From Minisyncoccia bacterium (GTDB lineage: Bacteria > Patescibacteriota > Minisyncoccia > Phycocordibacterales > UBA5272), in the NCBI GenBank assembly GCA_038256975.1, contig JBBSJU010000001.1, forward strand, positions 59,087 to 123,086: a stretch of 64,000 nucleotides of DNA, read 5' to 3'. The position numbers and the translations under genes were made by a program. Shown in pieces: positions 1,247-38,145 of this stretch. The notes beneath the pieces are model-generated. The model was not told the DNA's origin. It made no database searches and saw nothing but the letters and a program-made list of their open reading frames with translations. The stretch's first letter is position 1; the number at the start of each line of letters is the position of its first letter.

Positions 1247-4200
1247 ATGAGTGAAAAATCAGAACTTGTTACACCAAAAAAGTCGATAGCCGAAAAGGAG
1301 CTCGACGTTCTACAGTTCTGGCAAGAAAACAAGATTTTTGAAAAAAGCCTTGAAAAACCAGGAGGAGCAATTGCCAAACAAAACTTCACTTTTTATGATG
1401 GCCCACCATTTGCAACCGGCGTACCGCACCATGGGCATCTTCTCACAGGGACAATTAAAGACCTTATTCCTCGTTACAAGACGATGCAAGGTGAGTATGT
1501 GCGTCGTGTGTGGGGTTGGGATTGTCATGGTTTGCCAATTGAAAATCTTATTGAGAAAGAGTTTAATTTGAATCACAAAAAAGAAATTGAAGAGTTTGGT
1601 TTGGGTAAGTTTAATCAAGCATGTTTCGAGAGAGTGCTTCTCTATGAAAAAGATTGGAAAAAAGTAGTTCCTCGTATGGGGCGATGGGTGGACATGGAGC
1701 GTGCATACAAAACAATGGACGCGACCTATACGGAGAGTATTTGGTGGTCATGGAAGCAATTGTATGAAAAAAAGTTGGCGTACGAGGGATATAAAATAAT
1801 GCAAATATGTCCACGTTGTGAGACGACACTTGCGCAGAGTGAAGTAGCCCAAGGATATAAAGATGTGACAGATATTTCAGTGACGGCAAAGTTTGAATTA
1901 GTTGACCCGTCTGCGCAGGCAGGTGAACCAGGAACTTTTTTACTTGCGTGGACAACAACACCGTGGACGCTTCCAGGGAATACTGCGCTTGCTCTTAATA
2001 CTGAGGCAATATATGCATACGTTCAGCATGAAGGTTCACTGTATGTTGTGGCAGAAGAAAGACTTGAAAATGTTTTCAAGGAGCTTATATATGAAAAAGT
2101 AAAAACAGTGAAAGGTAAAGATCTTGTTGGTAAATCATATAAACCAGTATTTCCTTACTACATAGATACTTCACTTGATAATAAAGAAAATATATATAAA
2201 GTGTGGGCGGGAGACTTTGTGACTTTAGATACAGGAACGGGAATTGTGCACATTGCCCCAGCTTTTGGAGCTGACGACATGAATCTTGCAAAGGTAAACA
2301 AAATCCCTGTTATTCAACATGTATCAATGAGTGGGCAATTTACTAAAGAAGTTATTGATTTTCCAGAATTGTATGTAAAAAAGTTTGGAGACACACAGTC
2401 AACGGATATCGAGATTGTAAAATATCTCGCGCATCAGGGCAAATTATTTGCAAAAGAAAAACTCGTTCACTCATACCCACACTGTTGGCGATGTGACACA
2501 CCCCTTTTAAACTACGCAACTTCTTCGTGGTTTGTGGATGTTCCAAAAATTAAAGACAAGCTTATTGAGGCAAACAAGGGAGTTACGTGGGTACCGGAAC
2601 ATATTAAAGAAGGTCGTTTTGGAAAGTGGCTCGAAAATGCACACGAATGGGCGGTGTCACGATCACGTTATTGGGGCGCACCTATTCCTGTGTGGAAGTC
2701 CGAAGATGGTGATGTAAAGGTTATTGGAAGTTTTGCAGAAATGCGTGAGTACATGCCGAAAGCGAAGAACATATATATGGGTCTTCGGCATGGAGAGGCA
2801 AATTCAAATGTTACAAACACTCTTGATTCACTTGATGATCAGGAAAATCATTTGACAGAAAAGGGTAAGGAACAGATTGTGGCTGCTGCTAAAGAGCTAA
2901 AGGGTTCTGGTGTCACTAAAATAATTTCCTCACCCTTCTTGCGAACTCAAGAAACAGCTCAAATCTTGAGTGATATTCTCGGGGTTTCTTTCGAGGTTGA
3001 TGACCGATTAAAGGAAATTAATGTAGGTGTTTGGAATCGAAAGACGATAACTGATTTGTACGCACAAAACCCTGAGTTTCAAGAGAATTTAGACTATGCA
3101 CCAGATGGGGGGGAAAGTCACAGAGATTCTCGGACTCGTGCGATGAAGGTTCTATTTGACTGCGAAAAGAAATATGAAGGAGAAACAATCTTGATCGTGA
3201 CTCATGGTGGACCAATCGGTATGCTTGTGACTGGCGCACAGCTTATGAGTGATACCGAAACGCATAATTTCTTTACCAAAGACTCTCATGCCGATAAGCA
3301 TGGAAGATGTCTTGGGCACGGTAAGGTATATGATATTAACTTCAAACCATTTCCAAATCGAAATGGCGTACTTGATGTGCACCGTCCGTTTATCGACGAG
3401 GTCAAACTTACTATTGATGGAAAAGAATACACACGAGTTCCGTATGTATTCGACTGCTGGTACGAGTCGGGGTCAATGCCATATGCTGAAATTCACTATC
3501 CGTTCGAAAATGAAGTGCTGTTTAAAAATAGGTTTCCTGCAGACTGGATTGGTGAAGGTTTAGATCAGACACGCGGATGGTTTTATTCTTTGATGGTTCT
3601 AGGTGTCGCCCTTTTTGACAAAGCTCCTTACAGAAATGTGATTGTAAATGGTCTTGTAATGGCTGCCGATGGGCAAAAGGTAAGTAAGAGCAAGAAAAAC
3701 TTCACTGACCCAATGGAACTCGTAGAAAGGTATGGCGCTGATAGTATGAGACTGTATTTGGTATCAAGCCCGCTTGTACAAGCAGAAAATTCAAATTTCG
3801 TAGACAAAGATTTAGAAGAAATGCATCGAAGAATATTTGTACGTCTTGAAAATGTACTTGCATTTTATGAGATGTTTAAGGGAACAACTAGTACTCGGAT
3901 AGATCCATACAAGTCTCAGAACATGCTTGATATGTGGATGTTAAGTAGACTCAATCAAACTTTGAGTCAGACAACGTCTGGACTTGATGCAAATATGCTT
4001 GATGTGGCATCGCGGCCTTTCGACGGTTTTATTGATGACCTTTCCGTTTGGTATGTGCGTCGAAGTCGAGAACGATTAAAGGGGGACACTGGTGAGGAGG
4101 ATAGAATTGCGGCACTTTCTACCTTTGAATATGTCTTGTTGCAATTTGCAAAAATGTTTGCGCCATTTGCACCATTTGTTTCAGAGCGAGTATACAAGGC

Positions 4201-4741
4201 GGTTGGAGGAGAAAAGGAAAGCGTGCATCTTGAAAGTTGGGGAGAGGTAGGTGAGATAAAGGTTGAGATTGTTGAAGAAATGAAAAAAGTTAGAGACGTG
4301 GTTTCTAAAGGACTCGATGTTCGTGTTAAAAATGCGATTAAGGTTCGCCAGCCACTCTCACTCCTTACAACAGGAATAAAAATTGCAGAGCAGTATCTTG
4401 GTCTTATTCAAGATGAAGTGAATGTAAAACAGGTTACTTTCGATGAATCTCTTGGAGATATTGTGACACTGGATCTTTCCATTACTCCAGAATTAAAAAA
4501 AGAAGGTGATACCCGAGAACTTATTCGAGCAATACAAGATTTGCGTAAAAATAATGGACTCACACCAAATGATACACCGGCACTTTTTTACTCAGGAAAT
4601 GAAGAGGTGAAGTTGTTTGTTGAAAGTATTACGGACGCACTTACTCAGGCGTGCTTACTTTCAGAGATTACATACAAAGATTCTATAGAGAGTGAAGAAA
4701 TAAAAGTAGGTGAGTATCAGATGAAACTTAATTTGGCATAG
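1247..4741 (+). CDS. ileS: isoleucine--tRNA ligase (eukaryote-like type) carrying an internal histidine-phosphatase domain insertion
   Basis: HIGH motif (PHHGHLLTG), KMSKS motif (KVSKSKKN), CP1 editing region, WAVSRSRYWGAPIP and FDCWYESGSMPYA blocks; 1164 aa. Confidence 0.9.
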   Translation: MSEKSELVTPKKSIAEKELDVLQFWQENKIFEKSLEKPGGAIAKQNFTFYDGPPFATGVPHHGHLLTGTIKDLIPRYKTMQGEYVRRVWGWDCHGLPIENLIEKEFNLNHKKEIEEFGLGKFNQACFERVLLYEKDWKKVVPRMGRWVDMERAYKTMDATYTESIWWSWKQLYEKKLAYEGYKIMQICPRCETTLAQSEVAQGYKDVTDISVTAKFELVDPSAQAGEPGTFLLAWTTTPWTLPGNTALALNTEAIYAYVQHEGSLYVVAEERLENVFKELIYEKVKTVKGKDLVGKSYKPVFPYYIDTSLDNKENIYKVWAGDFVTLDTGTGIVHIAPAFGADDMNLAKVNKIPVIQHVSMSGQFTKEVIDFPELYVKKFGDTQSTDIEIVKYLAHQGKLFAKEKLVHSYPHCWRCDTPLLNYATSSWFVDVPKIKDKLIEANKGVTWVPEHIKEGRFGKWLENAHEWAVSRSRYWGAPIPVWKSEDGDVKVIGSFAEMREYMPKAKNIYMGLRHGEANSNVTNTLDSLDDQENHLTEKGKEQIVAAAKELKGSGVTKIISSPFLRTQETAQILSDILGVSFEVDDRLKEINVGVWNRKTITDLYAQNPEFQENLDYAPDGGESHRDSRTRAMKVLFDCEKKYEGETILIVTHGGPIGMLVTGAQLMSDTETHNFFTKDSHADKHGRCLGHGKVYDINFKPFPNRNGVLDVHRPFIDEVKLTIDGKEYTRVPYVFDCWYESGSMPYAEIHYPFENEVLFKNRFPADWIGEGLDQTRGWFYSLMVLGVALFDKAPYRNVIVNGLVMAADGQKVSKSKKNFTDPMELVERYGADSMRLYLVSSPLVQAENSNFVDKDLEEMHRRIFVRLENVLAFYEMFKGTTSTRIDPYKSQNMLDMWMLSRLNQTLSQTTSGLDANMLDVASRPFDGFIDDLSVWYVRRSRERLKGDTGEEDRIAALSTFEYVLLQFAKMFAPFAPFVSERVYKAVGGEKESVHLESWGEVGEIKVEIVEEMKKVRDVVSKGLDVRVKNAIKVRQPLSLLTTGIKIAEQYLGLIQDEVNVKQVTFDESLGDIVTLDLSITPELKKEGDTRELIRAIQDLRKNNGLTPNDTPALFYSGNEEVKLFVESITDALTQACLLSEITYKDSIESEEIKVGEYQMKLNLA
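2777..3360 (+). other. histidine phosphatase (phosphoglycerate-mutase superfamily) domain embedded in ileS, ~195 aa
   Basis: YMGLRHGEANSN (RHG catalytic motif) ... ILIVTHGGPIG (second His motif). It sits between the IleRS blocks VIGSFAEM and VLDVHRPFIDEV, where canonical IleRS has only ~40 aa. Confidence 0.6.
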
Positions 4742-4746: not shown

Positions 4747-5319
4747 GTGAGCTATCATCACTACACAACCGAAGGCGTAATTCTTAAACGAGAAGATCGT
4801 GGGGAAAATGATGCGGTCTATGTTGTCTTTACTGAAACACTCGGGCTCATCGCTGCACACGCAACAGGTATACGGCTTTTGAAATCAAAACTACGTTTTG
4901 CGCTCCAGGTAGGAAATAAGGTTCGTATTACTCTTGTACGCGGCAAGGCTTTGTGGAGAATTACAACCTGTGCATTGCTTACACCATTGCCAACATCTAT
5001 TCAAGCAACGTTTCCGCGCGTGTATAAGCTTTTACGAACGTGTATTGTTTTTGATGAGCCGCTCCCATTTGTCTACGAACACATACGAGCACTTGTTTCA
5101 CTTACCGAAGATGTCTACCAAGACAAGCGTCTCTTTCGCACCGCGGAGACACTCATAACAGCTCGCTTGCTCGCAACCATGGGTATGCTCGATCAAGTAC
5201 ACACTGGTGAATTTGATGAAATTTCGCCACTATCAGCATCATTTTGTGTCTCGTATCAAGCAAGAGGTGAGGCTTTGCTTCACCATATCAAAACACGGCT
5301 TGGTGAGAGCGTTCTCTAG
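4747..5319 (+). CDS. recO: DNA repair protein RecO-like (short form)
   Basis: N-terminal OB-fold pattern TEGVILKREDRGENDAVYVVFTETLGLIAAHATG typical of RecO; 190 aa, shorter than typical. Confidence 0.5.
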   Translation: MSYHHYTTEGVILKREDRGENDAVYVVFTETLGLIAAHATGIRLLKSKLRFALQVGNKVRITLVRGKALWRITTCALLTPLPTSIQATFPRVYKLLRTCIVFDEPLPFVYEHIRALVSLTEDVYQDKRLFRTAETLITARLLATMGMLDQVHTGEFDEISPLSASFCVSYQARGEALLHHIKTRLGESVL

Positions 5320-7256
5320 TGTTCTTTGCGGTATACTGTCTGTATATGGCACCAGAGGATAAAAGTTCTAAACTCGAAGAAATACAGGAATCCTTATATG
5401 ATTCTACCCAAGCGCCAAAAAGCAACGTGCGCCGTATTATTCATGAACGTGAATTTGATGTTCCCGAAGGTTGGACTGGTGCCGACGATCAAGAGTCTCT
5501 TTTGAACGAAATTCCTGCTGAAGAGCGAGTGAATCATTCAAAAAAGATTCCTATTCTTGTACTGATTCTCTCTCTTGTTTTGTGTATAGCGGCGGGAGTA
5601 TTTGCATGGTACCGACTGAGTGGAGAGTCATCTGCAGTGTCTCAAAATCTCATCGCATTAGAATCTCAAGCGCCAGGCTTTATTGATGGGGGAGAAGAGT
5701 TTGATTATATTGTATCGCTTTCGAATCAGAACACCACAGAGTTGCAGCTTGTTGATCTTGAGGTCTCTTATCCGCAAGGAGTTGAAGACATTGCTACCTC
5801 TCGAATTGTAACAACGAAAGATGTTGGTACGGTTCTTCCAAATACAGTTGTTCAAGAAAAGTTCCCACTCACACTTTACGGTGTTCCAGGTACTACCAAG
5901 CCAATTACTACAACTTTAAGATATAGTGTTCCTGGATCAACGGCCACATTTGAAAAAAAAGAAACAAAAGTTGTAGAAATAAAATCATCTCCTCTTACGC
6001 TTACGGTGGATTCTTTAAAAGAGGTTACTCCAGGACAGATCATGAAGGTTAAGGTGCGTATCGAATCTACTCGAGGTAAAACAATTCAAAGCTCTCTCCT
6101 CAAGCTTACATATCCAACAGGATTTGAATTTGTGAGTGCGGATGTTGTACCAACTACAGGTAATAATGTTTGGGATTTGGGCGTACTTACTCCCGGGGTT
6201 GTGCGTGAAATTACTGTCTCTGGTATTGCGCGTGGTGAGGATGGAGAATCAAGGGCGATTCGTGCACAGATTGGCTCAAAAGATGCCTCTGGAATTGCTA
6301 TCGCGTCACTTTTTGCAGAATCTAATCTTTCCTATACGCTTGTAAAGCCATTTTTACAGACAGACATTTTGGTGGCAAATGTAAAAGCGGCGACACATGT
6401 AGTTTCTTCTGGTGCAGATGTCTCTGTTTTTGTCTCCTATAAAAACAATGTCGATAAAGATCTTCAAAATGCAGAAATCGCACTTACTTTAAACGGTGAT
6501 GCAATTATGGAAGAAACTGTCCGCGCAGATGGCGGTTTTTACGATTCACGAACAAATACCGTGACGTGGACAAGGTCTACAGTACGGGAACTTGCAAATC
6601 TTGAGCCAGGCGCGATAGGGAGACTCTCTGTTGTATTTAAAACAAAAAGCTCTATCTCGCTTGATACCAATGAAGAAATAAAGCTAGACGTAAGTGCAAA
6701 AGCTCGACGGGTAGGAGAAAGTCAGCTTGCTGAAACGGTGGTTAGCTCACAGAGCACACTTTTGCGAGTTGTTACTCGGGTTGCTCTTGTTGCAGAAAGT
6801 GCGCGTAGTGGAGGATCATTCTCTGTTTTCGGACCTGTACCTCCAAAAGGAGAACAAGAAACATCGTATGTGCTCATTTCTCAAATTAAAAATACCGTTA
6901 ACCCGATCGATCGAGCAGAGGTGAAATTCAAGCTTCCATTTAATGTTCGGTTTATTGCGGGTGAGGCGACCCAGGGAACGGTAACCTATAGTGAGTTTGA
7001 TAAACAGATTAAGTGGACCGCGGGGAGTGTGGTGAAATCAAGTGGAGGTGTTGATCCAGTGCTGTATGTGCATGTTGCGGTGATACCGTCACTTGTCGAT
7101 GTTGGGAAAAGTTCTACTCTTGCCACAGACTTTACTCTGACCGCAGTTGATATATTTACCAAGACATCACTGAGTGCAAAAGGCCCGAGTGTTATTACGA
7201 CAAAGTTTCGAATTAGTGATGGTTTTAAGAAAGGGGACGATCTTGTTACTCAGTAG
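5319..7256 (+). CDS. membrane-anchored surface protein with DUF11-like conserved repeat domains
   Basis: Single TM helix (IPILVLILSLVLCIAAGVFAWY) after a short cytoplasmic N-terminus. Beta-rich repeats with LTYPTGFEFVSAD...WDLGVLTPG and KLPFNVRFIAGEAT...WTAGSV patterns. Confidence 0.55.
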   Translation: MFFAVYCLYMAPEDKSSKLEEIQESLYDSTQAPKSNVRRIIHEREFDVPEGWTGADDQESLLNEIPAEERVNHSKKIPILVLILSLVLCIAAGVFAWYRLSGESSAVSQNLIALESQAPGFIDGGEEFDYIVSLSNQNTTELQLVDLEVSYPQGVEDIATSRIVTTKDVGTVLPNTVVQEKFPLTLYGVPGTTKPITTTLRYSVPGSTATFEKKETKVVEIKSSPLTLTVDSLKEVTPGQIMKVKVRIESTRGKTIQSSLLKLTYPTGFEFVSADVVPTTGNNVWDLGVLTPGVVREITVSGIARGEDGESRAIRAQIGSKDASGIAIASLFAESNLSYTLVKPFLQTDILVANVKAATHVVSSGADVSVFVSYKNNVDKDLQNAEIALTLNGDAIMEETVRADGGFYDSRTNTVTWTRSTVRELANLEPGAIGRLSVVFKTKSSISLDTNEEIKLDVSAKARRVGESQLAETVVSSQSTLLRVVTRVALVAESARSGGSFSVFGPVPPKGEQETSYVLISQIKNTVNPIDRAEVKFKLPFNVRFIAGEATQGTVTYSEFDKQIKWTAGSVVKSSGGVDPVLYVHVAVIPSLVDVGKSSTLATDFTLTAVDIFTKTSLSAKGPSVITTKFRISDGFKKGDDLVTQ

Positions 7257-13379: not shown

Positions 13380-13382
13380 GTC

Positions 13383-13500
13383 TTTTAAAAACCCGAGTTA
13401 TATATGCACACGTTCTCGCTTTGCCAAGCGAGCCGTTCCGCTCGACAGAATTTTCTGCTGAAAATTCGTCTGTGCGAGGCATATGTAATTCGGGTTTTTA
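13383..13500 (+). repeat. structured repeat element, family B copy 1 (79-nt conserved core at 13404-13482 inside a long closing stem)
   Basis: Core ATGCACACGTTCTCGCTTTGC.AAGCGAGCCG.TCCGCTCGA..GAATTTTCT...GCGAGGCAT recurs at 45373-45450. Flanking stem here is TTTAAAAACCCGAGTTATAT / ATGTAATTCGGGTTTTTAAA. Confidence 0.5.
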
Positions 13501-13563
13501 AAGTTCGGGAAAAGTTGACATATATACACTTTCTCGGTATGAATATGTTAAACCTCGCACAGT

Positions 13564-13788
13564 GTGAGGAGCATGGAGTGGGTCATGATGGTTATTGTAG
13601 TGATTGTTAAGTTGGTACTCATGATTGTGGGTCTTTGGTTGCTGACCCTGTTTGGCATGATTACCGCCCCTAATCTGTATGAATACGGAGAGAGTGAGCT
13701 ATTTCCAAAGGCGGTAAAGATTGTGTTGAGAAGGTATTTACTCGGAGGAATCACGGCAATTTTTCTCGCCGTGTTTATCCCGTACTGA
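13564..13788 (+). CDS. small hypothetical membrane protein (2 TM)
   Basis: Own -35/-10 at ~13515-13545 (TTGACA-17-TATGAAT) and own intrinsic terminator downstream; 74 aa, hydrophobic. Confidence 0.35.
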   Translation: MRSMEWVMMVIVVIVKLVLMIVGLWLLTLFGMITAPNLYEYGESELFPKAVKIVLRRYLLGGITAIFLAVFIPY

Positions 13789-13809
13789 TTTTTCAAGTTC
13801 CGAAAGCTC

Positions 13810-13848
13810 GCAGTGCGGCTTTCGGGCTTTCGTTTTTTATAGAGACAC
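13810..13848 (+). terminator. intrinsic terminator
   Basis: CCGAAAGC..GCTTTCGG stem followed by a T-run. Confidence 0.5.
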
Positions 13849-13896
13849 TAAAGGATTATTTTTTATATACAAAGGTGCGGTATACTTAAAGGACGC

Positions 13897-16629
13897 ATGA
13901 ATCCATCGTTTCTTCCGCAGCAATTTAAAAATCCTGAAGAAGAGATTGCCTATTTGCGTTCAAAACTTTTTGAGCGTGAGACACAAATGAAGGAAACTGG
14001 CGGGCAATTATCTGCTCCTGAGATTATGAAAGTGGAAGTGGATAGGTATCAGCAGATTCCTGTCGAAAAAGCTCTCACTCCACAATACGCTCTTTCACAG
14101 GGAGAGGTGGGGGGTATTGTGCTTAATCTTACGCCGCGCTCAACGGATGAAAAAGTAAGCGAGCTTTTGGGAATCTTTTTAGATAAAGGGTTACGGAATA
14201 CCCTGAGCGTTCTTGAACAAATGAAAAATCCAAGCCTCGACGACGACTTTCATCGCTTCCTTGTTCAATACATTGCTTCAGGACAAGACCCAAAAGATGT
14301 TCGCAAGGTGCCAGAGGAAATGAAGGGAGTGGACATGGTTCTTTACGAAATCTCGCTTCCCGCAGAAGAGACGAGTGATAAAGCGAAGTCGTTTAAAGAA
14401 CTTGTGGCGTCAATGGAGCAGTTCTATGCTGGGATGCTTGCTATTTCAGATGGCAAGGATAATTCAAATAAAAATTATTTCTCTCTTGAAATTGCACTTT
14501 CAGCCGAAAGTGATGAGATTATTTTTTATGCAGCAGTGCCACGCGAACGTCGGGAGCTTTTTGAAAAGCAGATCATTGGTGTATATCCAAAAGCTCGTCT
14601 CAAAGAACAGGTGAATGATTATAATATTTTTAATAATGAGGGTGCCTCATATGGGATGACGGCAGAATTTACCGAAAGTGCGGCGCTCCCCATAAAAACA
14701 TACGAGCAATTTGAGGCCGATCCTGTACAAGTTATCTTGAGCTCGTTCTCAAAACTCAAACACACTGGTGAGGGTGCGGCAGTGCAGTTTCTTATTCGTC
14801 CAGCAGGCGCAAAGTTCATTGAACGCTACGGAAAGATGCTCGATAAAATAAAGAAGGGTATGACGCTCAAAGAAGCAGTGAAGGAAGAAAGTACTGCGTA
14901 TTTGGTTGGCAAAAAGACGCTTAATTTTGTTTTTGGTGGCGAAAAAAAGAAAGATGAGAAAGTGACTATTTCACATGTTGAAGAAGATGCAACCCGTCTG
15001 ATTGTGGACAAAATAAAAAGTACCATCGTGGAAGTAAACATACGTGTCATTGCTTCAGCAGAGACAGTCGAGCGAGCACAAGGGATTATTAAAGATGTTA
15101 TTTCTGGATTTCACCAGTTCACTGAAACAAAAGGCAATCAGCTGACGTTTGATGTCAAAAAAGCTAAAGCGAACACTCGGTTATTCCATGACTTCAGTTA
15201 CCGTATTTTCCGAGAAAATGAAGTGTTGCCGCTTAACTTAAAAGAGCTGACAACTCTTGCGCACTTTCCAAGCTCTACAGTTGGTTCAAATCAGCTTAAG
15301 ACTGCTCAAGCAGCACAAGCGCCTGCGCCACTTGATTTACCAGTGTCAGGAACGCTTATCGGTGTCAACAAGTATCGGAGCACAGAGACAAAGATTTTCA
15401 TGACTCCTGATGATCGGGTGCGTCACATGTATGTTGTAGGACAGACAGGAACAGGTAAGACAAGTATCTTGAAAAACATGATTATTCAGGATATTCAAAA
15501 TGGTGATGGTTGCTGTTTTATAGATCCACACGGTACGGATGTGCAAGATATCTTAGCAAGTATCCCTCCAGAGCGTGCAAAAGATGTGGTGTATTTTGAC
15601 CCAGCATACACAGCACGGCCGATGGGACTCAATATGCTTGAATACGATGTTCGTTTTCCTGAACAGAAGACATTTGTAGTTAATGAGCTCTTGAGTATTT
15701 TCAACAAACTTTTTGATATGAAGACTGCTGGCGGGCCGGCATTTGAACAATACTTCCGCAATTCAGCTCTTCTAGTGATGGAACATCCAGAAAGCGGAAA
15801 TACCCTTCTTGATATTTCACGTGTGCTCTCTGATAAAAATTATCGAGCCTATAAGCTTTCTAAATGCCAAAATCCACTTGTGTCGCAGTTTTGGGCAAAC
15901 GCTGAAAAGACAACAGGTGATCAAGGTTTACAGAACTATGTTCCGTATATCACTAATAAATTCGACAATTTTCTTTCAAATGAAATCATGCGACCGGTAG
16001 TTGCTCAAGAGCACTCTGCTTTCAATTTCCGCGATATCATGGATCAGAAAAAGATACTCCTCGTCAATCTTTCGAAAGGTCGTCTCGGTGACATTAATGC
16101 GAATCTCATTGGACTTATTTTGGTTGGGAAGATCCAAATGGCCGCACTTTCTCGTGTGGATATGTACGGACAAAAGATGAACGATTTTTATCTCTATATC
16201 GATGAGTTTCAAAATGTCACGACCGATTCCATCGAGTCTATTCTCTCAGAAGCCCGAAAGTATCGTTTGAGTCTCAACTTAGCTCATCAGTACATTAGCC
16301 AAATCCCTGAAAATATTAAAGGTGCCGTGTTTGGAAACGTGGGTTCCATGGCAGTCTTTCGGGTTGGTGTCGAGGATGCTGAATTTTTGGCAAAACAATT
16401 TGAGCCGATTTTTACCGCGAATGATATTTTGAAAATTGAAAACTATAATGCGTATGTCAAAATGCTTTCTCGGGGTATTCCTCAGAAACCATTTAATATT
16501 AGTATTCTACCTCCAGCGAAGGGTAATCTAGAAATTGTAGAGCAACTTAAACAGCTTTCATATATGACATTTGGGCGAGACAGAACAGAGGTTGAAGCGG
16601 AAATCGCTCAAAAGTACACGCCCGTCTAG
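13897..16629 (+). CDS. TraD/TrwB/VirD4-like (type IV coupling protein-type, DUF87 / TraM-recognition) P-loop ATPase with a ~490-aa uncharacterised soluble N-terminal domain
   Basis: Walker A VVGQTGTGKTS followed 17 aa later by FIDPHG (as in the TrwB/TraD GTGKS...DPNG arrangement). Walker B YLYIDEFQNV. Then ARKYRLSLNLAHQYISQIPENI... (TraG/TraD C-terminal pattern). No TM segment; 910 aa. Confidence 0.65.
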   Translation: MNPSFLPQQFKNPEEEIAYLRSKLFERETQMKETGGQLSAPEIMKVEVDRYQQIPVEKALTPQYALSQGEVGGIVLNLTPRSTDEKVSELLGIFLDKGLRNTLSVLEQMKNPSLDDDFHRFLVQYIASGQDPKDVRKVPEEMKGVDMVLYEISLPAEETSDKAKSFKELVASMEQFYAGMLAISDGKDNSNKNYFSLEIALSAESDEIIFYAAVPRERRELFEKQIIGVYPKARLKEQVNDYNIFNNEGASYGMTAEFTESAALPIKTYEQFEADPVQVILSSFSKLKHTGEGAAVQFLIRPAGAKFIERYGKMLDKIKKGMTLKEAVKEESTAYLVGKKTLNFVFGGEKKKDEKVTISHVEEDATRLIVDKIKSTIVEVNIRVIASAETVERAQGIIKDVISGFHQFTETKGNQLTFDVKKAKANTRLFHDFSYRIFRENEVLPLNLKELTTLAHFPSSTVGSNQLKTAQAAQAPAPLDLPVSGTLIGVNKYRSTETKIFMTPDDRVRHMYVVGQTGTGKTSILKNMIIQDIQNGDGCCFIDPHGTDVQDILASIPPERAKDVVYFDPAYTARPMGLNMLEYDVRFPEQKTFVVNELLSIFNKLFDMKTAGGPAFEQYFRNSALLVMEHPESGNTLLDISRVLSDKNYRAYKLSKCQNPLVSQFWANAEKTTGDQGLQNYVPYITNKFDNFLSNEIMRPVVAQEHSAFNFRDIMDQKKILLVNLSKGRLGDINANLIGLILVGKIQMAALSRVDMYGQKMNDFYLYIDEFQNVTTDSIESILSEARKYRLSLNLAHQYISQIPENIKGAVFGNVGSMAVFRVGVEDAEFLAKQFEPIFTANDILKIENYNAYVKMLSRGIPQKPFNISILPPAKGNLEIVEQLKQLSYMTFGRDRTEVEAEIAQKYTPV

Positions 16630-16652: not shown

Positions 16653-17255
16653 ATGACACACCCAAAGAAAGAGCGTACATTTGTAATTTTAAAGCCAGAC
16701 GCTATTCAGCGTGGACTTGTGGGAGATATTCTCTCCAGATTTGAAAAGTCAGGACTCAAAACAGTCGCAATGAAAATGGTTGTTGCAACCGAAGAGCAGT
16801 GTTTTGCGCACTATAATAAGGATGACGCATGGTTTGAAAAGAAGGGGGCAAAGGTAGTTGAAAATATGAAATCACGTGGTGTAGAGCCAACAAAGCCTGC
16901 CATTGAGTATGGTAAAGATATTGTACGGGCACTCGCAAAGTACATGACAGCTGGCCCATCAATTTGTCTTGTATTTGAAGGAAATAAATCCGTCGCTGTG
17001 GTGACAAAGCTTGTAGGTGGCACGGAGCCAACAACATCTGATGTGGGAACTATCCGTGGCGACCTTACTTTAGATTCATACGATGCTGCAAATTTTGATG
17101 CACGCGCAGTACGTAACCTTGCACATTGTTCAGAGAGTCCTGAAGAGGCGCTACGAGAAATTCCTATTTGGTTTAAAGAAAATGAAATCATTTCGTACAA
17201 TCATATTCAAGACGCTATTCTCTACGACGTGAATCTTGACGGCATTCTTGAATAA
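16653..17255 (+). CDS. ndk: nucleoside diphosphate kinase (extended C-terminus)
   Basis: ERTFVILKPDAIQRGLVGDILSRFEKSGL and the active-site His context NLAHCSES (NxxHgSDS). Confidence 0.85.
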   Translation: MTHPKKERTFVILKPDAIQRGLVGDILSRFEKSGLKTVAMKMVVATEEQCFAHYNKDDAWFEKKGAKVVENMKSRGVEPTKPAIEYGKDIVRALAKYMTAGPSICLVFEGNKSVAVVTKLVGGTEPTTSDVGTIRGDLTLDSYDAANFDARAVRNLAHCSESPEEALREIPIWFKENEIISYNHIQDAILYDVNLDGILE

Positions 17256-17258
17256 TTC

Positions 17259-17702
17259 ATGGAACACCTCACTGTACAAGTAAGTGAAATGATTCACGCT
17301 CCAATACAAAAAGTATTTGATTTTATTGTTGATCCTACACAAACACCAAAGGCGATGACTGGTTCTATAGAGAACACAAATATCTCCGAACTTCCACTTA
17401 AGAAAGGCTCAACATATAACTATAAATATAAAATGCTCGGGGTGACACTTGATGGTGTGTGGGAGGTAAAACAAATTGAATCACCAAAAATGTATTCAGC
17501 ACGAACTATTGGTGATGCTGAAAGTGAATGGAATTATGAACTTCAGGAAGATGCGGGGGTAACACATATTATTCTCACCATTACGTATAAGCCGCCAGAG
17601 AATGTTTTTGATCGAGTAAAGATGAGTGCGATGATAAAAGTGAATGAATTGGAGGCAAAAAACTTTCTACATAATCTGAAGGTATTGACTGAAGAAGAGT
17701 AG
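17259..17702 (+). CDS. SRPBCC (START / polyketide-cyclase-like) fold protein
   Basis: 147 aa; the N-terminal pattern IHAPIQKVFDFIVDPTQTPKAM resembles SRPBCC ligand-binding domain starts. Confidence 0.4.
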   Translation: MEHLTVQVSEMIHAPIQKVFDFIVDPTQTPKAMTGSIENTNISELPLKKGSTYNYKYKMLGVTLDGVWEVKQIESPKMYSARTIGDAESEWNYELQEDAGVTHIILTITYKPPENVFDRVKMSAMIKVNELEAKNFLHNLKVLTEEE

Positions 17703-17902
17703 AAGATATACTGGATACAGGTGTCGCACGTGTATCTTTCTTAACACTTGGTAAGGGAATGCGATATCCGTGTGTGCTGTGGCATATACATGAGCGATCC
17801 CACTTGAATTTTTTAGTTCAGGTACACCTGTTGGCACCTATAAAAAATATCACTCAGAAATGGGTGGTATTTTTTGTTTGTGCACTCTGATACAATACGA
17901 GC

Positions 17903-18289
17903 ATGTCCAAAGCTCTCTATGGAAGCACCTTCTTGTCTGTAGGCGTTCTCTCTTTTTTGCACTGGTATGCACTCAAGCAGCATCTCTATTTTTTTTATCC
18001 AACACTTGATATCTTCATGCATCTTTTTGGCGGGTTTACTGTTGGACTCTGTGCGGTGATAGCGATTTCCTTTTTCTTTAGAAACCTACCACCTAAAGTC
18101 CTCTACGCTCTTGTATTTTTATTTGTGCTCTCAAGCGGGGCATTGTGGGAAGTGTTTGAATTATATTTAAACTTTGAATTTAATTTAAAAAATTTTAGCC
18201 TGCAAGATACGATGGCAGATCTTGTAAATGATTTAGTAGGTGGGACAATTGCCCTGTATCTAGCCTACAAAAAACACTGGTATGCCTAG
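17903..18289 (+). CDS. hypothetical integral membrane protein
   Basis: 4 predicted TM helices; 128 aa. Confidence 0.4.
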   Translation: MSKALYGSTFLSVGVLSFLHWYALKQHLYFFYPTLDIFMHLFGGFTVGLCAVIAISFFFRNLPPKVLYALVFLFVLSSGALWEVFELYLNFEFNLKNFSLQDTMADLVNDLVGGTIALYLAYKKHWYA

Positions 18290-19664
18290 TAAACAAGTAA
18301 GTATTTCATTCGAGAGTGGCGCTCGTTCAGTAACGGGCTCTAATTTTTTGATTGAGTTTGGAAATAAAAAGTTTTTGGTTGATTGTGGCCTCGAACAAGG
18401 AAGTAAGTATGCTGATGAACAAAACCATGATCCGTTTGCATACGATCCATCCTCTATTGACGTGCTTTTTGTAACGCATGGACACTTAGATCATGTAGGA
18501 AGAATTGGAAAACTCGTGAAAGATGGTTTTCGAGGTCAGATATATTCAACACCACCAACAAAAGAAATAGGTGAGCTTGTGATGATAGATAGTATGAAAA
18601 TTGTAAACAGGGCAGCTGAGGAGGATCAAAAAGAGCCACTCTATTTACAAGGAGATGTAGATAATGCTCTTGCGCGTTGGAATACAAAAGATTATCACGA
18701 ACCAATGATATTTGATTGCGAGGGAGAGCCGCTTACAGTTACATTTCGTGACGCTGGGCACATTCTAGGCTCTTCGATGGTTGTTTTTTCATATAGAGGT
18801 ACAAAAATAGCGTTTACGGGCGACCTCGGGAATACACCTTCGACACTTATGGCAGATACTGAAATCATGCGCGATATTGATTACCTTGCTATTGAAAGCG
18901 TATATGGTGACCGTAATCACGAGATGCATTTTGAACGAAAACAAAAGTTACAAGATATAATTTTACGCACCGTTAAAGAAAAAGGGATTCTCATCATTCC
19001 AGCATTTTCGGTTGAACGTACGCAGGAACTCTTATTTGAGTTGAATGATATGGTTGAAAACAAAGAGGTCCCTCGGGTACCAACATATCTTGACTCACCA
19101 CTTGCAATAAAAGTAACAGATGTTTTTAAGCGAAACAAAAAATATCTCAATAAAAGTGTGCAAGAACGAATGAAATCTGATGACATTTTTGATTTTCCAG
19201 GACTCATTCGGGTGGCTGATAGTGAGGAGTCAAAAGCAATAAAAGAAGTTCCTGGTCCAAAAATAATTATTGCAGGAGCTGGCATGATGAATGGTGGGCG
19301 AGTGATCCATCATGCAAAAAATTATCTTAACAATCCTCACGCAACACTCCTTGTTGTCGGCTATCAAGCGCCAGGTACACTCGCACGGCTTCTGGTGGAC
19401 GGTATAAAAACAGTTCGAATATTTGGTATCGAAGTTGCGGTTCGTGCTAGGGTAGAAACCCTTACTGGCTATTCAGCACATAAAGATTCTGACGATCTTG
19501 TTTCTTTTGTCGAACCAATGGTTGGACGACTTAAAAAGGTGTTTGTCATTTTGGGCGAACTAAAAGCTTCTCTTTTTCTCGCACAACGTATAAAAGATAC
19601 CTATAATGTCGATGTGTCGGTTCCTGACAAGGGTGACAAAGTAATCGTGCCACTGGTACAATAG
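18282..19664 (+). CDS. MBL-fold beta-CASP ribonuclease (RNase J / CPSF-like hydrolase)
   Basis: FVTHGHLDHVGRIGKL (HxHxDH metallo-beta-lactamase motif) and beta-CASP-like C-terminal region; 460 aa. Confidence 0.75.
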   Translation: MPSKQVSISFESGARSVTGSNFLIEFGNKKFLVDCGLEQGSKYADEQNHDPFAYDPSSIDVLFVTHGHLDHVGRIGKLVKDGFRGQIYSTPPTKEIGELVMIDSMKIVNRAAEEDQKEPLYLQGDVDNALARWNTKDYHEPMIFDCEGEPLTVTFRDAGHILGSSMVVFSYRGTKIAFTGDLGNTPSTLMADTEIMRDIDYLAIESVYGDRNHEMHFERKQKLQDIILRTVKEKGILIIPAFSVERTQELLFELNDMVENKEVPRVPTYLDSPLAIKVTDVFKRNKKYLNKSVQERMKSDDIFDFPGLIRVADSEESKAIKEVPGPKIIIAGAGMMNGGRVIHHAKNYLNNPHATLLVVGYQAPGTLARLLVDGIKTVRIFGIEVAVRARVETLTGYSAHKDSDDLVSFVEPMVGRLKKVFVILGELKASLFLAQRIKDTYNVDVSVPDKGDKVIVPLVQ

Positions 19665-19671
19665 AGCAAAC

Positions 19672-20247
19672 ATGACTATACATAAAGAAACCTCGATCGT
19701 GCTTTGCGTCTCTGGAGCAGCTGACATTGGGCACTGTGGCATTGATGCGCGCGAAAAGGCAATAGAGCTTGGGAAAGAGATTGGTAGAAAAGGTGCGGTG
19801 TTGGTAACGGGCGCGACTACAGGGTTTCCTTTGTGGGCAGCAATGGGAACAAAGTCGGAAGGAGGCATTTCAATTGGACTTTCTCCTGCGGCCAATGTAA
19901 GAGAGCACAAAGAGGTGTATAAGCTTCCGCCTGATTATATGGACTTGGTAGTCTATACAGGGTTTGGTTTTCCTGGACGCGATTTGTTACTCATTCGTTC
20001 ATGCGAGGCGGTACTCATTGGTTGTGGACGTATTGGCACTATTCACGAGTTTACGATTGCGTTTGAGGACAATAAACCGATTGGAGTTTTGCAAGGCGAT
20101 TGGGCCACAGATGAAGTTATTCAAAATATTATTGCAAAAGGTAATCGTCCTAATCCAAAGATTGTTTTCGATACAGACCCAAAACGTTTGGTGGAAAAAG
20201 TGATAGAGCTTGTTAAAGTCGATCGTTTAGCGGCAGGGGTTATTTAG
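19672..20247 (+). CDS. TIGR00725 / LOG-like Rossmann-fold protein
   Basis: IVLCVSGAADIGHCGIDAREKAIELGKEIGRKGAVLVTGATTG matches the SLOG/LOG-family N-terminal nucleotide-binding pattern. Confidence 0.5.
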   Translation: MTIHKETSIVLCVSGAADIGHCGIDAREKAIELGKEIGRKGAVLVTGATTGFPLWAAMGTKSEGGISIGLSPAANVREHKEVYKLPPDYMDLVVYTGFGFPGRDLLLIRSCEAVLIGCGRIGTIHEFTIAFEDNKPIGVLQGDWATDEVIQNIIAKGNRPNPKIVFDTDPKRLVEKVIELVKVDRLAAGVI

Positions 20248-31337: not shown

Positions 31338-32276
31338 ATGAGTAAGGTAGAGATATACAACATACTAATGCTTTTCGTCGCACTCGTTTTAGCATTTATT
31401 CTACCATTTGATTTATTTCTGTTTGCATATGCGGTTTTAGGGCCACTTCATTATCTTACTGAAATCAGGTGGCTCCATGATAAAAATTACTTCACGGCAG
31501 CAACTATCTCTCGGTTTATTTTTGTCACTTGTATGAGTATTGGGGTTGCGGCACTATTTTCTAGCACACTTGCGGTATCAAATTTTCTTCTCATAGCACT
31601 CTTTCTTCTCTCGCTTCTCCTTGTTTTTCCTAGAAGTATATACATATGGATGAGCGCACTTGGTCTTATAGGGGTATCACTTTTCTATCGTGCGGGTCCC
31701 ATCGTTGCACTTCTTGGTGTTTTAATACCCACACTAATTCATGTGTACTTTTTTACTCTTGTGTTTATGATTCAAGGTGCTCTAAAAAATAAACATAAGA
31801 TATATTGGATTGCTCCAATCCTTCACGTATCTTTTGGATTGTTATGTGTGTATGGTTCCTTCGGTGGATATTTTGCAAGTAGCGTGTACGCACAAAATGT
31901 TTTCTTTAATCAAGACTTTGGTTTTTCTGAAACATTTGTTCAGATTGGAGGTAGTTTTTTTGGTGGTTTGCATAATGTGCGACAGTTGTTTTCTTCTCCA
32001 GAAGGGTTGGCTATAAGTCGACTGTTTGCCTTTGCGTACACGTACCATTACTTGAATTGGTTTATAAAAACACGAGTTATTGGATGGGGAAATATACCTA
32101 AAAAAACGTTCATAATTATTCTCTTATTATGGTTCTCAGCACTGTTTGTGTATACCCATGATTACATCACAGGTATGGCAGTTCTTGCTTTTCTGAGCGT
32201 TTTACATGTTGTCTTAGAGTTTCCTCTGAATATACGGGCTGTGCGGAGTTTTTTCCCAAACTCAACAAAAATATAG
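31338..32276 (+). CDS. hypothetical polytopic membrane protein
   Basis: ~9 TM helices; 312 aa. Confidence 0.45.
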   Translation: MSKVEIYNILMLFVALVLAFILPFDLFLFAYAVLGPLHYLTEIRWLHDKNYFTAATISRFIFVTCMSIGVAALFSSTLAVSNFLLIALFLLSLLLVFPRSIYIWMSALGLIGVSLFYRAGPIVALLGVLIPTLIHVYFFTLVFMIQGALKNKHKIYWIAPILHVSFGLLCVYGSFGGYFASSVYAQNVFFNQDFGFSETFVQIGGSFFGGLHNVRQLFSSPEGLAISRLFAFAYTYHYLNWFIKTRVIGWGNIPKKTFIIILLLWFSALFVYTHDYITGMAVLAFLSVLHVVLEFPLNIRAVRSFFPNSTKI

Positions 32277-33878: not shown

Positions 33879-34673
33879 AGGCTCTATCACTCAAAAATGT
33901 TAAAAGAAAAACCAAACCAACCAAGCGCCTAACGATTCAAGTCTCTTGAGTTGTACCGCTTGCAAGAGCGGTTTTTCTTTTACTAAAAAAGTGGTGCGTT
34001 GTTTGACAATTCAATTCTGTTCCTCGGGTATTTATCCCAAAACAATTTGGGGTCTTTTCTCCCGAGGAAACAGGTTCATAAAAACAAAGTAAGAAGCATT
34101 ACAGATGAAAAAATAAAAGGTACATCTGTAATGAACATGTATACGTCTTGAGTGGTCAAGACAAGTACATTTGGTTTTTACATTTCCTAATAGGAATGTA
34201 TGGGCGTACGGTGGATGCCTTGGTTCTGACGAGCGATGAAGGACGTAGTCTGGCTGCGATAAGTTTCGGGGAGGTGCCAAACAACCTTTGATCCGGAAAT
34301 TTCCGAATGAGGAAACTCCATGTGAGTAATGTCATGTGATCCCGCAAGGGAAGCGAACCCGATGAAGTGAAACATCTCAGTAATCGGAGGAAAATAAACT
34401 AAACAAGTATTTCGTAAGTAGCGGCGAGCGAAAGCGAAGAAGCCCAAACCGTTTGTAGCAATACAGGCGGGGTTGTAGGGCAGAGATGTCAATTATGAGG
34501 AGAGTTACAAAACGTGTGTTTAAAAGAAGTGCCTGGAACGGCACGCCATAGATGGTGATAGCCCAGTATTTGAAAAACACATGTCTCTCTAGTCTCTGTT
34601 CCTGAGTAATTCTAGACACGAATAGCTAGGATGAATCCACCAGCACTAACTGGTAAGGCTAAATATTGTCAGA

Positions 34674-34715
<42 letters not shown>

Positions 34716-35406
34716 GTCCGAAAGGACAGTGAAATAGACCTGAACCCGTATGCCTACAAGGAGTCAGAGCGGATATTTATATCCGTCATGGCGTGCCTAT
34801 TGAAGAATGAGCCAACGAGTTTTTATGTGCAGCTGGCTAAGGAAGAGAAACTTCTGGAGCCACAGGGAAACCGAGTGTTAATAGCGCGAAATTATAGTTG
34901 CACATAAAAGACCCGAAGCCAGAAGAGCTTACCATGAGCAGGGTGAAGTATTTCGAAAGAAGTATGGAGGCCCGAACCCGTAGATCGTTCAACTTCTTGG
35001 GATGACTTGTGGTAAGGAGTGAAAAGCTAATCGATTCTGGTAATAGCTGGTTCTCTCCGAAATAGTTTTAGGACTAGCGTCGCGTGTTCCTCTGAGGGGT
35101 AGAGCACTGGAAGGGTTCAACAGGGAGCAATCTCGTGAACCCTATCAAACTCCGAATACTCAGTAGTCAAGAACGCGGCAGTAAGACCGTGGGGGCGAAG
35201 CTTCACAGGTCAAAAGGGAAACAGCCCTGATCTCCAGTTAAGGTCCCAAAGTATATGCTAAGTGCAAAGTGAGGAGGTGAAATTTCGTAGACAATGAGGA
35301 TGTTGGCTTAGAAGCAGCCATCATTGAAAGATAGCGTAACAGCTCACTCATCGAGAGATTTTGCGCCACAGATAATCGGGGCTCAAGCATATCACCGAAA
35401 CTGAGG

Positions 35407-35549
35407 GCTTGTAGATTTCATACAGGATTTTGTGTGACATAGTGTTAGTGGATAGCACGTCACAAAATAGTGGAGGCTTCCGTTCGATTCGGAACTCACA
35501 CAAATTCTGTCACAACTGCATAGTTGTGTCCTGTATGAAATCTATAAGC
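35407..35549 (+). other. ~140-nt intervening/expansion stem-loop in 23S at the helix-45 position
   Basis: GCTTGTAGATTTCATACAGG ... CCTGTATGAAATCTATAAGC is a 20-bp stem. It replaces the short E. coli hairpin GCGGCAGCGACGCUUAUGCGUUG between CACCGAAGCUG and GGUAGGGGAGCGUUC. Confidence 0.5.
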
Positions 35550-36305
35550 GGTAGGAGAGTGTTCCGCTCTGCGTTGAAGTAGAAGGGGTGACCCACTATG
35601 GAGCGTGCGGAAGTACAAATGTTGGCACAAGTAACCACAATGTGGGTGAGATCCCCACACGTCGAAAGAACAAGGTTTTCTTCGCCATGATAATCATCGA
35701 AGAGTTAGTCGGCCCTAAGGGAATGGCTCGCGCCGGACCCGATGGACAAAAGGTTAATATTCCTTTACTTCTTTATACAGCGATGGGAGGACGAAGGGCA
35801 GTAACATACGCATATCAATGGATTTGTGTTTGTATTGTGAGGGAGCATTCTAGGTAAATCCGGGTGCTGATTTAAATATCGATTCCAAGCAATGCATAAA
35901 CCGGCGGGGCAACCCAAAGGAATGTATGTGAGCGCGCTTCCAAGAAAAGTCTCTAGCTTCAACGATAATACCGTTGAAATCTCTTCTTTTTTCGCTCTTT
36001 ATTGAGTGAAATGAGAAGGGAAATATGTATAGTGAAACCGTACCGCAAACCGACACAGGTGTTCAGGTCGAGTAGACCAAGACGAACGAGTGATTGATCC
36101 CCAAGGAACTCGGCAAAAAAGCAGCCGTAAGTTAGCAATAAGGCTTGCCCGTAGCAATACGGGCCGCAGCGAAAGTTTCCCTGGCAACTGTTTACCAAAA
36201 ACACAGCTCCCTGCGAACTCGTAAGAGTATGTATAGGGGGTGACACCTGACCAATGCCAGAAGGTCAAATATCGGTGGTCGCAAGGCTGACTGATATAAG
36301 CCCTG

Positions 36306-36346
<41 letters not shown>

Positions 36347-37004
36347 GTTCCTTGTCTGGTAAGTTCAGACGCGCACGAATGGTGTAATGACTGGGGAACT
36401 GTCTCGGGGATTAGCTCGGTGAAAATACAATACCGGTGAAGATGCCGGTTACCTGCAGTTAGACGAAAAGACCCCAGGAGCTTTACTGCAACTTGATATT
36501 GAAAATACGTTTGTGATGCGTAGCATAGGTGGGAGAGGTTGAAGTCACGGTCTCGGCTGTGATGGACTCGAAATATGAAATACCACTCTTCAAACGGGTA
36601 TGCACTAACGTGTTTAAGAAAATTTTACGCAGACAGTATCTGGCGGGTAGTTTTACTGGGGCGGTACCCTCCTAAAGGGTAACGGAGGGGTTTATTAAGG
36701 TCAGTTAGGTGTGAATGGAAACCATACCGATAGTGTAAGGGCATAAACTGGCTTTACTGTAAGACGGGCATGTCAAGCAGTTGCGAAAGCAGAACCTAGT
36801 GAACCGATGGTTCGCATTAGACGCGACCGAAGATTAACGGATAGAAGCTACTCTGGGGATAACAGGCTAGTTCCGCCTAAGAGTTCATATCGACGGCGGA
36901 GTTCGGCACCTCGATGTCGGCTCATCTTATCCTGGTGGTGAAGAAGCTACCAAGGGTATGGCTGTTCGCCATTTAAAAAGATACGCGAGCTGGGTTCAAA
37001 CCGT

Positions 37005-37318
37005 AGAGGAGGTAATTGCAAAGACGTTCCAAGTTTTTGTAATTGGCTTCTCTTAGTTTGAACCCGAGGGTTAAGACTAAACTTAACAAAAAGACATCAA
37101 TCACGGCGGTGTGTTGTAGTGATACAACATGACAAGTCAACTAATATCGGGAAAATCCTATTCGTAGGACAATTCCGAGGGAACTTTATGCAAATAAAGA
37201 CCCGTAGAGACTATACGTTGGCACACTTACATAAAAAATAAGTGCAAGCTCTAGTCCGATCCCTTCAGTAATGAAGGTTCTTGCAACCGAGACCACGGCA
37301 AGATATAAAACTGAAATG
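37005..37318 (+). other. putative group I intron (~314 nt, no ORF) in 23S domain V
   Basis: Interrupts GGGTTCAAACCGT|...|CGTGAGACAGGTTGG (E. coli GGGUUUAGAACGUCGUGAGACAG). 5' exon ends in U and the insert ends in G. Internal AGACTAAA ... TAGTCC resembles the P7 GACUA/UAGUC pair. Confidence 0.55.
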
Positions 37319-37369
37319 CGTGAGACAGGTTGGTCTCCTATCTACTGCAGGCGTTGATATTTGAGGATA

Positions 37370-37401
<32 letters not shown>

Positions 37402-37922
37402 GAACCTCTGGTGTAAGGGCTCTGGCGCCAGCCGGACCGCCCTGTAGCTATGTTCGGAACGGATAACTTCTGAAAGCATCTAAGAAGGAAGCCGCATCCA
37501 AGATAAGATATCGTTATTAGGGTCGTAAGAGATGATTACGTTGATAGGCTTTAGGTGTAAGTGCAGTAATGCATTCAGCCGAGAAGTACTAATTACCCGA
37601 ATTCCTATTAGGAAATGTGAAAACCAATGTCAGATAAATTGTTTTAAATGAAAAGAAGGGAGGGTCCGCCCTCCACACAAGGTGTATGTGCAGACTTTGT
37701 GTGGAGGGCGGAAGAAGCGAAGGTTTTACTGTTTGCTTGTCGATGTCCGTATTCCTAGGCTTCTATGCCGCGAGGAAAAGGTCTTCTGATGACAACCATT
37801 GTCAGTAAAAACGAGCATGCCTCCTTCAGGGACTGGTGTTCCGTACGAGACTCCGCCATGTGCGTATGTCTCTCGGTCGGGTGTAAGCTCAACACCAGTC
37901 ACCCCCTTCTTTGTTCTTTGTG

Positions 37923-37998: not shown

Positions 37999-38022
37999 AC
38001 CCAAATCTTGATTTTATGAATA

Positions 38023-38099: not shown

Positions 38100-38145
38100 T
38101 CATATAGTACAGTCAAGTACTTTTCTTTGAGTGTATGTTGAATGT

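Follow-up and report, generated by a model that had tools for sequence, protein, structure and literature searches.

VirB4 and VirD4, two ATPases of type IV secretion systems (T4SSs), have been proposed to derive from a soluble common ancestor (Guglielmini et al.; PMC3548315). In the Ced system, CedD – which consists of a transmembrane (TM) segment, a domain resembling the VirB4 N-terminal domain (NTD), and an ATPase – is required for DNA import (PMC11868833). A survey of Patescibacteria recovered 5,713 homologs of VirD4-type type IV coupling proteins (T4CPs) from 2,918 of 3,035 genomes, only 148 of which lie near virB4 (Quinonero-Coronel et al. 2025; PMC12102498). Here we describe an ATPase gene on the forward strand at 13897-16629 of a 64,000-nucleotide stretch (contig JBBSJU010000001.1, hereafter the window) of a Minisyncoccia bacterium. 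Its 910-residue product is an ordinary member of a large family that is catalogued in Pfam, in NCBI annotation and in the 2025 survey, and that is functionally uncharacterised; the domain filling most of its N-terminal half, DUF8128, found no mention in the literature searched.

Patescibacteria rely on their hosts for building blocks, nucleotides among them. The T4SS encoded on their chromosomes, though essential for epibiosis, is without relaxases or a clearly assigned coupling protein. What is new here is the VirB4-type fold predicted for DUF8128, the link between the family and conjugation modules that carry Replic_Relax and TcpF, the observation that most family members are TM-anchored whereas this clade is not, and a fixed position among housekeeping genes.

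Results

The ATPase domain

The open reading frame (ORF) is complete and begins with ATG. All of the TrwB/TraD-type motifs listed in a first-pass annotation of the window are found at the spacing given there: GTGKTS at aa 518, FIDPHG at aa 541 after a gap of exactly 17 residues, DEF at aa 769, and ARKYRLSLNLAHQYISQI at aa 786. Walker A (GQTGTGKT, aa 515) and the sequence YIDEF (aa 767) are invariant over 25 homologs. The assignment of the C-terminal half to the TraD/VirD4 type is supported by Pfam, in that the protein matches TrwB_AAD_bind with 28.8 bits (gathering threshold 20.5; E 7.6e-7) and TraG-D_C with 23.6 bits (gathering threshold 22), each over ~50-60 residues. Profiles of the HerA/FtsK kind are not the best matches: DUF87 (E 2e-3) and FtsK_SpoIIIE (E 0.017) are both weaker than TrwB_AAD_bind. 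TrwB_AAD_bind, TraG-D_C and DUF87 are matched by each of the 25 clade members, and T4SS-DNA_transf by six of them (best 5.8e-9). The VirB4 profiles AAA_10 (PF12846) and CagE_TrbE_VirB (PF03135), on the other hand, are matched neither by the query at E<=1 nor by the 25 clade members at E<=0.01.

The TraD/VirD4 models of NCBIfam score 14-49 bits, far below their cut-offs of 250-800; the NCBIfam CedD model gives a weak match (E 6.7e-4) in the P-loop region only; and PADLOC returns mad8 (E 4.8e-10) and HerA (E 1.9e-7). Sequence searches of the PDB, made with the single protein and with a profile of 25 sequences, produced matches at the level of the P-loop only (TrwB, DotL, RecA) and left the N-terminal half unclassified. 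Between Walker A and Walker B the full-length structural model (see below) contains helices only (aa 590-717), and these – predicted with moderate confidence – occupy the position of the all-alpha domain of T4CPs. As had been claimed, the protein has no predicted TM helix: no window of 19 residues exceeds a Kyte-Doolittle mean of 1.55, the value reached at aa 733 within the ATPase core.

The N-terminal half

The N-terminal half had been described as novel and unrelated to known domains. This description is not supported: aa 140-495 are DUF8128 (PF26449), an assignment taken from precomputed annotation, where it is given for a 100%-identical entry (P0001) and for nearly every homolog listed. 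The precomputed Pfam architecture of the homologs is PF26449 + PF10412 + PF12696. When 75 diverse members are aligned, the core they have in common comprises aa 140-495 plus an ATPase of ~415 aa, and only the first ~140 residues are clade-specific. Within this extension P112, D117, H119 and R120 are nearly invariant in the clade.

An AlphaFold2 (AF2) model of aa 140-495, calculated from a 30-sequence alignment with a mean column identity of 33%, reached a predicted local distance difference test score (pLDDT) of 85.4 and a predicted TM-score (pTM) of 0.83. When the model was compared to known structures with Foldseek, the top 12 matches were all chains of the VirB4 protein TrwK (E 9e-7 to 6e-4), with the next matches at E >2e-3. 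Structure 4ag6 (which holds the VirB4 C-terminal domain only), T4CPs and HerA are absent from the N-domain lists, so that what the fold matches is VirB4's N-terminal domain rather than the ATPase. A full-length AF2 model based on 25 close relatives is mediocre (pLDDT 66) and was used for secondary structure and as a lead: it aligns with TrwK over 750-927 columns, but with DotL, Cagbeta, DndH-C and HerA over only ~340. Full-length hhalign profiles align collinearly with TcpF over aa 366-877 (E 1.5e-4, probability 51%), while the N-domain compared to a 34-sequence TcpF profile gave a probability of 1.8%, which is not significant. According to the models, DUF8128 folds like the N-terminal domain of VirB4, the likeness being demonstrable at the level of fold only. 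The protein combines an ATPase motor that is T4CP-type by sequence with an overall architecture that resembles VirB4.

A DUF8128 profile recovered 6,188 clusters (at 50% identity) at E<=1e-3 and 1,372 at E<=1e-30. In most clusters the domain starts at residue ~35-65, and of 101 representatives of full length, 66 carry a hydrophobic stretch (>=1.8) in their 60 N-terminal residues. The usual layout of the family is therefore TM anchor, DUF8128 and ATPase; in this clade a soluble helical extension stands in place of the anchor.

Table 1. Features of the ATPase gene and its immediate surroundings (positions in the window).
Feature	Positions	Strand	Remarks
DUF8128-type T4CP-family ATPase, whole 910-aa ORF	13897..16629	+	
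aa 1-139, clade-specific soluble helical N-extension	13897..14313	+	
aa 140-495, DUF8128 (PF26449), VirB4-NTD-like alpha/beta fold (predicted)	14314..15381	+	
aa 496-910, T4CP-type P-loop ATPase domain of the FtsK/HerA superfamily	15382..16629	+	
Walker A GQTGTGKT, aa 515-522	15439..15462	+	G515, Q516, T517, G518, G520, K521, T522 invariant
All-helical insertion, aa 590-717, between Walker A and B	15664..16047	+	full-length model, pLDDT ~56-83, moderate confidence
Walker B FYLYIDEF, aa 764-771	16186..16209	+	
TraG-D_C (PF12696) match, aa 764-822, containing ARKYRLSLNLAHQ	16186..16362	+	
Nucleoside diphosphate kinase (NDK), start 24 bp 3' of the ATPase gene	16653..17255	+	conserved synteny
74-aa hydrophobic ORF, GTG start, in strain-specific insert 13380-13896	13564..13788	+	

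Conservation and gene order in Patescibacteria

The gene had been regarded as an orphan, a view that is at odds with the homology search, with the gene order of its relatives and with the published survey (PMC12102498). At least 3,900 relatives were scored; the best 120 are all full-length (894-938 aa), are 57-100% identical to the query, and belong to Patescibacteria (Minisyncoccia, Paceibacterota, Nomurabacteria). NCBI names homologs either 'TraM recognition domain-containing protein' or 'type IV secretion system DNA-binding domain-containing protein'. Between genomes whose NDKs share only 27-32% identity, the ATPase half is 71-78% and the N-terminal half 44-51% identical. These identities, set against that of NDK, indicate strong purifying selection on a core gene.

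Gene order is kept in five relative loci (58-90% identity). Upstream lies either a cluster of ribosomal-protein, SecY, Adk and Map genes or the pair MetRS-TatD; on the other side come NDK, in some cases an SRPBCC protein and a DUF2238 membrane protein, and, also downstream, a beta-CASP metallo-beta-lactamase (MBL) nuclease, an SLOG/LOG-like protein, and L20/L35/IF3. NDK directly follows the ATPase gene in four of the five loci, and in the remaining one (L008) a single extra gene intervenes. The link between NDK and the ATPase gene is one of conserved synteny only. Promoter-like sites show no enrichment over shuffled sequence (12 vs 8.3 +/- 3.0), and any claim of an operon is for this reason limited to the 24-bp spacing. 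The ATPase gene is a vertically inherited, chromosomally fixed core gene. In the window (16653-20247) and in the relatives L001 and L006-L009 the downstream block is rich in nucleotide and nucleic-acid enzymes (NDK, beta-CASP MBL nuclease, SLOG/LOG-like protein), and TatD lies upstream in the source genome; this neighbourhood is suggestive of a link to salvage, yet may reflect inherited gene order alone.

The screened ORFs of the window encode housekeeping functions (aminoacyl-tRNA synthetases, ribosomal proteins, Mur ligase, FtsW, GyrB, glycosyltransferases), alongside 23S and 5S rRNA. No T4SS, relaxase or pilin gene was found among them, in agreement with the earlier statement that conjugation genes are not visible nearby, and no conjugative element adjoins the gene. 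Homologs of VirB3, VirB6 and VirB8 do not adjoin the ATPase gene among the screened ORFs or in the relative loci, no integrase was seen around it in the window, and the GC content of its surroundings is flat (0.40-0.42).

The TatD and ATPase genes are separated by a strain-specific insert of 517 bp (13380-13896), which holds the 74-aa ORF together with a 24-nt inverted repeat (13384-13407 / 13479-13502) and, 3' of the ORF, a terminator-like hairpin (13799-13826). The first-pass annotation had drawn attention to this upstream membrane protein as an independently transcribed unit. The hydrophobic ORF exists and has a terminator-like hairpin of its own, but as a partner it is not conserved: a relative at 90% identity is without the insert, TatD and the ATPase gene being 36 bp apart there, and in another, at 87% identity, the gap is filled by an unrelated 158-aa gene, with only ~40 bp before the start codon aligning. 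As the ORF is absent or replaced in such close relatives, we rejected it as a partner that anchors the ATPase to the membrane.

Three more divergent chromosomal loci were read: one from a Gracilibacteria genome, one from a second metagenomic contig, and one from a genome that probably lies outside the candidate phyla radiation (CPR), given its purine and riboflavin biosynthesis genes and a protein with S-layer homology (SLH) domains. All three ATPase genes lie amid housekeeping genes, and none of the three loci has T4SS neighbours. Genes for prepilin-type N_methyl proteins occur near the ATPase gene in two of the three (L013 2600-3406 and 14650-17583; L014 1177-1620); their proximity could be due to chance, or to a link with type IV filament or competence machinery.

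A second T4CP-like architecture was noted in Patescibacteria, in which an N-terminal CxxC-x17-CxxC zinc-ribbon (PF23477) is joined to the same type of ATPase, without DUF8128, in proteins of ~540-710 aa (P0226, P0231, P0232, P0234, P0239). Such proteins may explain why the published survey found about two T4CP homologs per genome (PMC12102498).

Homologs on plasmids and phages

Beyond Patescibacteria chromosomes, DUF8128 ATPases occur on mobile elements. In PHROGs the protein gives a near-full-length match (aa 141-905, E 1.5e-85) to phrog_5156, a group of unknown function. Searches with tblastn found 67 phage records covering aa ~140-875, including SPO1 gp27.4, phage G gp156, TP-84 and D6E, and nearly all of these phages infect spore-forming Bacillales. 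The same region is covered by 278 plasmid records from Bacillus, Streptomyces, Clostridium botulinum, haloarchaea and Sulfolobus, of which 236 were typed as non-mobilizable by MOB-suite. PF26449 is present in the precomputed annotation of many of the Bacillus homologs.

Three mobile-element loci were read, and in each the neighbouring partner protein matches Replic_Relax (PF13814) above threshold. On a B. subtilis plasmid the order of genes is ParM, a DUF87/DUF8128 ATPase (886 aa), Replic_Relax, two small ORFs, a conjugal transfer protein, TcpE, an 848-aa ATPase and another conjugal transfer protein; the 848-aa ATPase is a true VirB4/TcpF (PF12846, 45% identity to TcpF of Enterococcus and Clostridium). 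On an Embleya plasmid the order is PrgI (VirB3-like), a VirB4-like ATPase, the DUF8128 homolog, Replic_Relax and NlpC/P60. Since on both plasmids the DUF8128 ATPase adjoins a Replic_Relax DNA-processing protein while a separate VirB4/TcpF-type ATPase is present, it occupies the slot of the second, or coupling, ATPase. In phage SPO1 (L005 2968-8478) an actin-like ParM-type protein (gp27.9) and the DUF8128 ATPase (gp27.4) are followed by Replic_Relax (gp27.3). Phages of this type are without a T4SS, and the module must there act in replication, segregation or DNA handling; members of the family can thus work without a T4SS.

Other features of the window

Two further ORFs are without a Pfam match, one of 645 aa (5319-7256, +) and one of 312 aa (31338-32276, +); the positional counterpart of the former in relative L006 has a faint CLIPPER match only. 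A 1164-aa ORF of the isoleucyl-tRNA synthetase type (1247-4741, +) carries an embedded His_Phos_1 histidine phosphatase domain (aa 513-672, E 1.7e-35), an unusual insertion or fusion. The 23S rRNA match (34188-38258) extends over 3425 nt compared to a model of 2925 positions, which corresponds to insertions of ~500 nt. Next come tRNA-Ala, a second tRNA (38024-38099; Rfam 38.4 bits) that ARAGORN missed, and 5S rRNA; no 16S rRNA was found in the 64-kb window.

Discussion

The domain identities, the fold of the N-domain, the size and distribution of the family, its conservation, and its genomic contexts – as documented above – invite a proposal as to function. Found in almost all of the clade, strongly conserved, and homologous to the protein in the coupling slot of monoderm conjugation modules, the DUF8128 family is on these grounds a candidate for a motor that selects or moves substrates, or for an exapted DNA translocase. 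The reading we prefer, which we consider possible though not quite probable, is that the 910-aa protein belongs to a DUF8128-type branch of the T4CP (VirD4/TraD) family and serves a Patescibacteria T4SS encoded elsewhere. The protein would form a hexameric, ATP-driven ring; the ring would receive a substrate – DNA or nucleoprotein, possibly protein – and would feed it to the T4SS of Patescibacteria, a derivative of the mating-pair formation class FATA (MPF-FATA) encoded elsewhere on the chromosome. Docking would occur through the VirB4-like N-domain and the N-extension, and not through a TM anchor. The fold of DUF8128 thus provides a structural hypothesis for the docking of a T4CP that has no TM segment.

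Several observations weigh against a partnership with a T4SS. The chromosomal relatives examined showed no T4SS genes in flanks of +/-8-10 kb, no Replic_Relax partner was seen at this locus, and the clade is without the TM anchor that ~65% of the sampled family carry. The T4CP profiles of Pfam are matched over short parts only, and in the full-length model the ATPase core is of low confidence (pLDDT <50 for aa 771-824). Phage homologs (SPO1, G, TP-84) occur where no T4SS is present. From the survey come three further points: VirB4 is found in 2,417 genomes vs 2,918 with T4CP homologs; relaxases number only 109 in 3,035 genomes; and the T4CP homolog of Southlakia is, unlike other T4SS genes, non-essential for epibiotic growth (PMC12102498).

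Much of this evidence would fit a T4CP-family motor that has been exapted for chromosomal DNA handling independently of any T4SS, an explanation we regard as rather less likely, and as the main rival. In its most appealing form, foreign DNA would be imported for recombination or to salvage nucleotides, in the manner of archaeal CedD; FtsK-like segregation or clearance of DNA is the alternative. CedD itself is the precedent (PMC11868833), although the sequence match to it is confined to the P-loop region. Exaptation was raised as a possibility by Quinonero-Coronel et al., in whose survey T4CP homologs occur in more genomes than VirB4 does and the Southlakia homolog is dispensable for epibiosis (PMC12102498). 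Homologs in phages that have no T4SS point the same way, as does the very strong conservation of the ATPase half. So does the core synteny with TatD upstream and NDK, the beta-CASP nuclease and the SLOG/LOG-like gene downstream, which could however be vertical inheritance within one class. N_methyl prepilin genes stand beside divergent members at two of three loci, but such genes are common in CPR genomes and their adjacency may be chance. The explanation further has to contend with a hypothetical substrate, and with a clade that has neither a membrane anchor nor an identified channel partner. A bolder version holds that DUF8128 ATPases are a surviving intermediate between VirB4 and VirD4 that retains the ancestral VirB4 N-domain, and that in Patescibacteria they were domesticated as a core engine of DNA import for nucleotide salvage, independent of a T4SS or loosely coupled to one, in parallel with CedD. 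Given the soluble common ancestor proposed for the two ATPases (PMC3548315), such an intermediate might take the form of a T4CP-type motor bearing a VirB4-type N-domain; we nevertheless consider this version unlikely. Whatever its function, the fold of DUF8128 is a data point on the divergence of VirB4 and VirD4, and makes the protein one of interest for the evolution of T4SSs.

The models raise a different alternative, namely that the protein is a divergent VirB4 paralogue – an ATPase of assembly or pilus biogenesis – which took its architecture from VirB4 and matches T4CP profiles of Pfam through the general relatedness of VirB4 and VirD4. VirB4/TrwK is indeed the top structural match, whether the full-length or the N-domain model is compared, the alignment with TcpF is collinear, and VirB4 is typically soluble or peripheral (PMC3548315). 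Yet no member matches AAA_10 or CagE_TrbE_VirB and all match T4CP profiles; the N-domain on its own gives no significant alignment to TcpF; the plasmids carry a separate, bona fide VirB4/TcpF, with the homolog beside Replic_Relax in the usual position of a coupling protein; and VirB4 genes of Patescibacteria cluster near dnaA/dnaN, where this gene does not lie. We consider a VirB4 paralogue improbable. A role in anti-phage defence, as an ATPase resembling HerA or mad8 of the MADS system, could be read from the PADLOC matches and from the presence of DndH-C and HerA among the structural matches, but these are generic to P-loop ATPases of this superfamily. There is no adjacent nuclease, methylase or other defence partner, and defence islands are variable, whereas this is a highly conserved single-copy core gene in fixed housekeeping synteny: we rejected defence as very unlikely. 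Of the roles suggested in the first-pass annotation (DNA uptake, defence or effector transfer), it has the least support. Least probable of all, and likewise rejected, is the idea that the gene was left behind by an integrated conjugative element or prophage. While homologs do occur on plasmids and phages, and a strain-specific insert lies directly upstream, the composition is flat, neither integrase nor relaxase nor T4SS gene is present, synteny is kept in relatives at 58-90% identity, and the frame is intact with invariant catalytic motifs.

Comparison with described systems

With the T4CPs (VirD4/TrwB/TraD/DotL/Cagbeta) the protein shares the TrwB_AAD_bind and TraG-D_C matches, T4SS-DNA_transf in relatives, and Walker A and B motifs that are intact and flank a predicted helical insert; its plasmid homologs, moreover, adjoin a Replic_Relax gene alongside a separate VirB4. 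It differs from them in that the clade has no N-terminal TM anchor, in the ~355-aa VirB4-NTD-like DUF8128 that precedes the ATPase, in missing the NCBIfam equivalog cut-offs widely, and in the setting of the gene, which is core chromosomal and has no relaxase or T4SS neighbours. The resemblance to VirB4/TrwK/TcpF lies, according to the models, in the fold of the N-terminal domain. In contrast to these proteins, it matches no VirB4 sequence profile, and profile-profile comparison of its N-domain with TcpF is not significant; on plasmids, homologs are found together with true VirB4, and the gene is not beside VirB3, VirB6 or VirB8.

CedD and CedB of the crenarchaeal Ced DNA-import system are likewise chromosomal, and combine a VirB4-NTD-like domain with a HerA/VirB4-like ATPase; Ced is a T4SS-like system repurposed away from conjugation, which we count as a further shared trait (PMC11868833). 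CedD, however, belongs to the HerA clade, is TM-anchored, and has an NTD that covers only part of the VirB4 NTD (PMC11868833). Its sequence similarity to the 910-aa protein is limited to the P-loop region, and Ced partners are absent from this locus. The plasmid-borne 'DUF87 domain-containing protein' of Bacillales and SPO1 gp27.4 (phrog_5156) differ in that they have no 140-aa N-extension, reside on mobile elements, and adjoin Replic_Relax and ParM-like genes, but they share with the protein described here DUF8128 and the same ATPase, at 22-26% identity over aa ~140-875.

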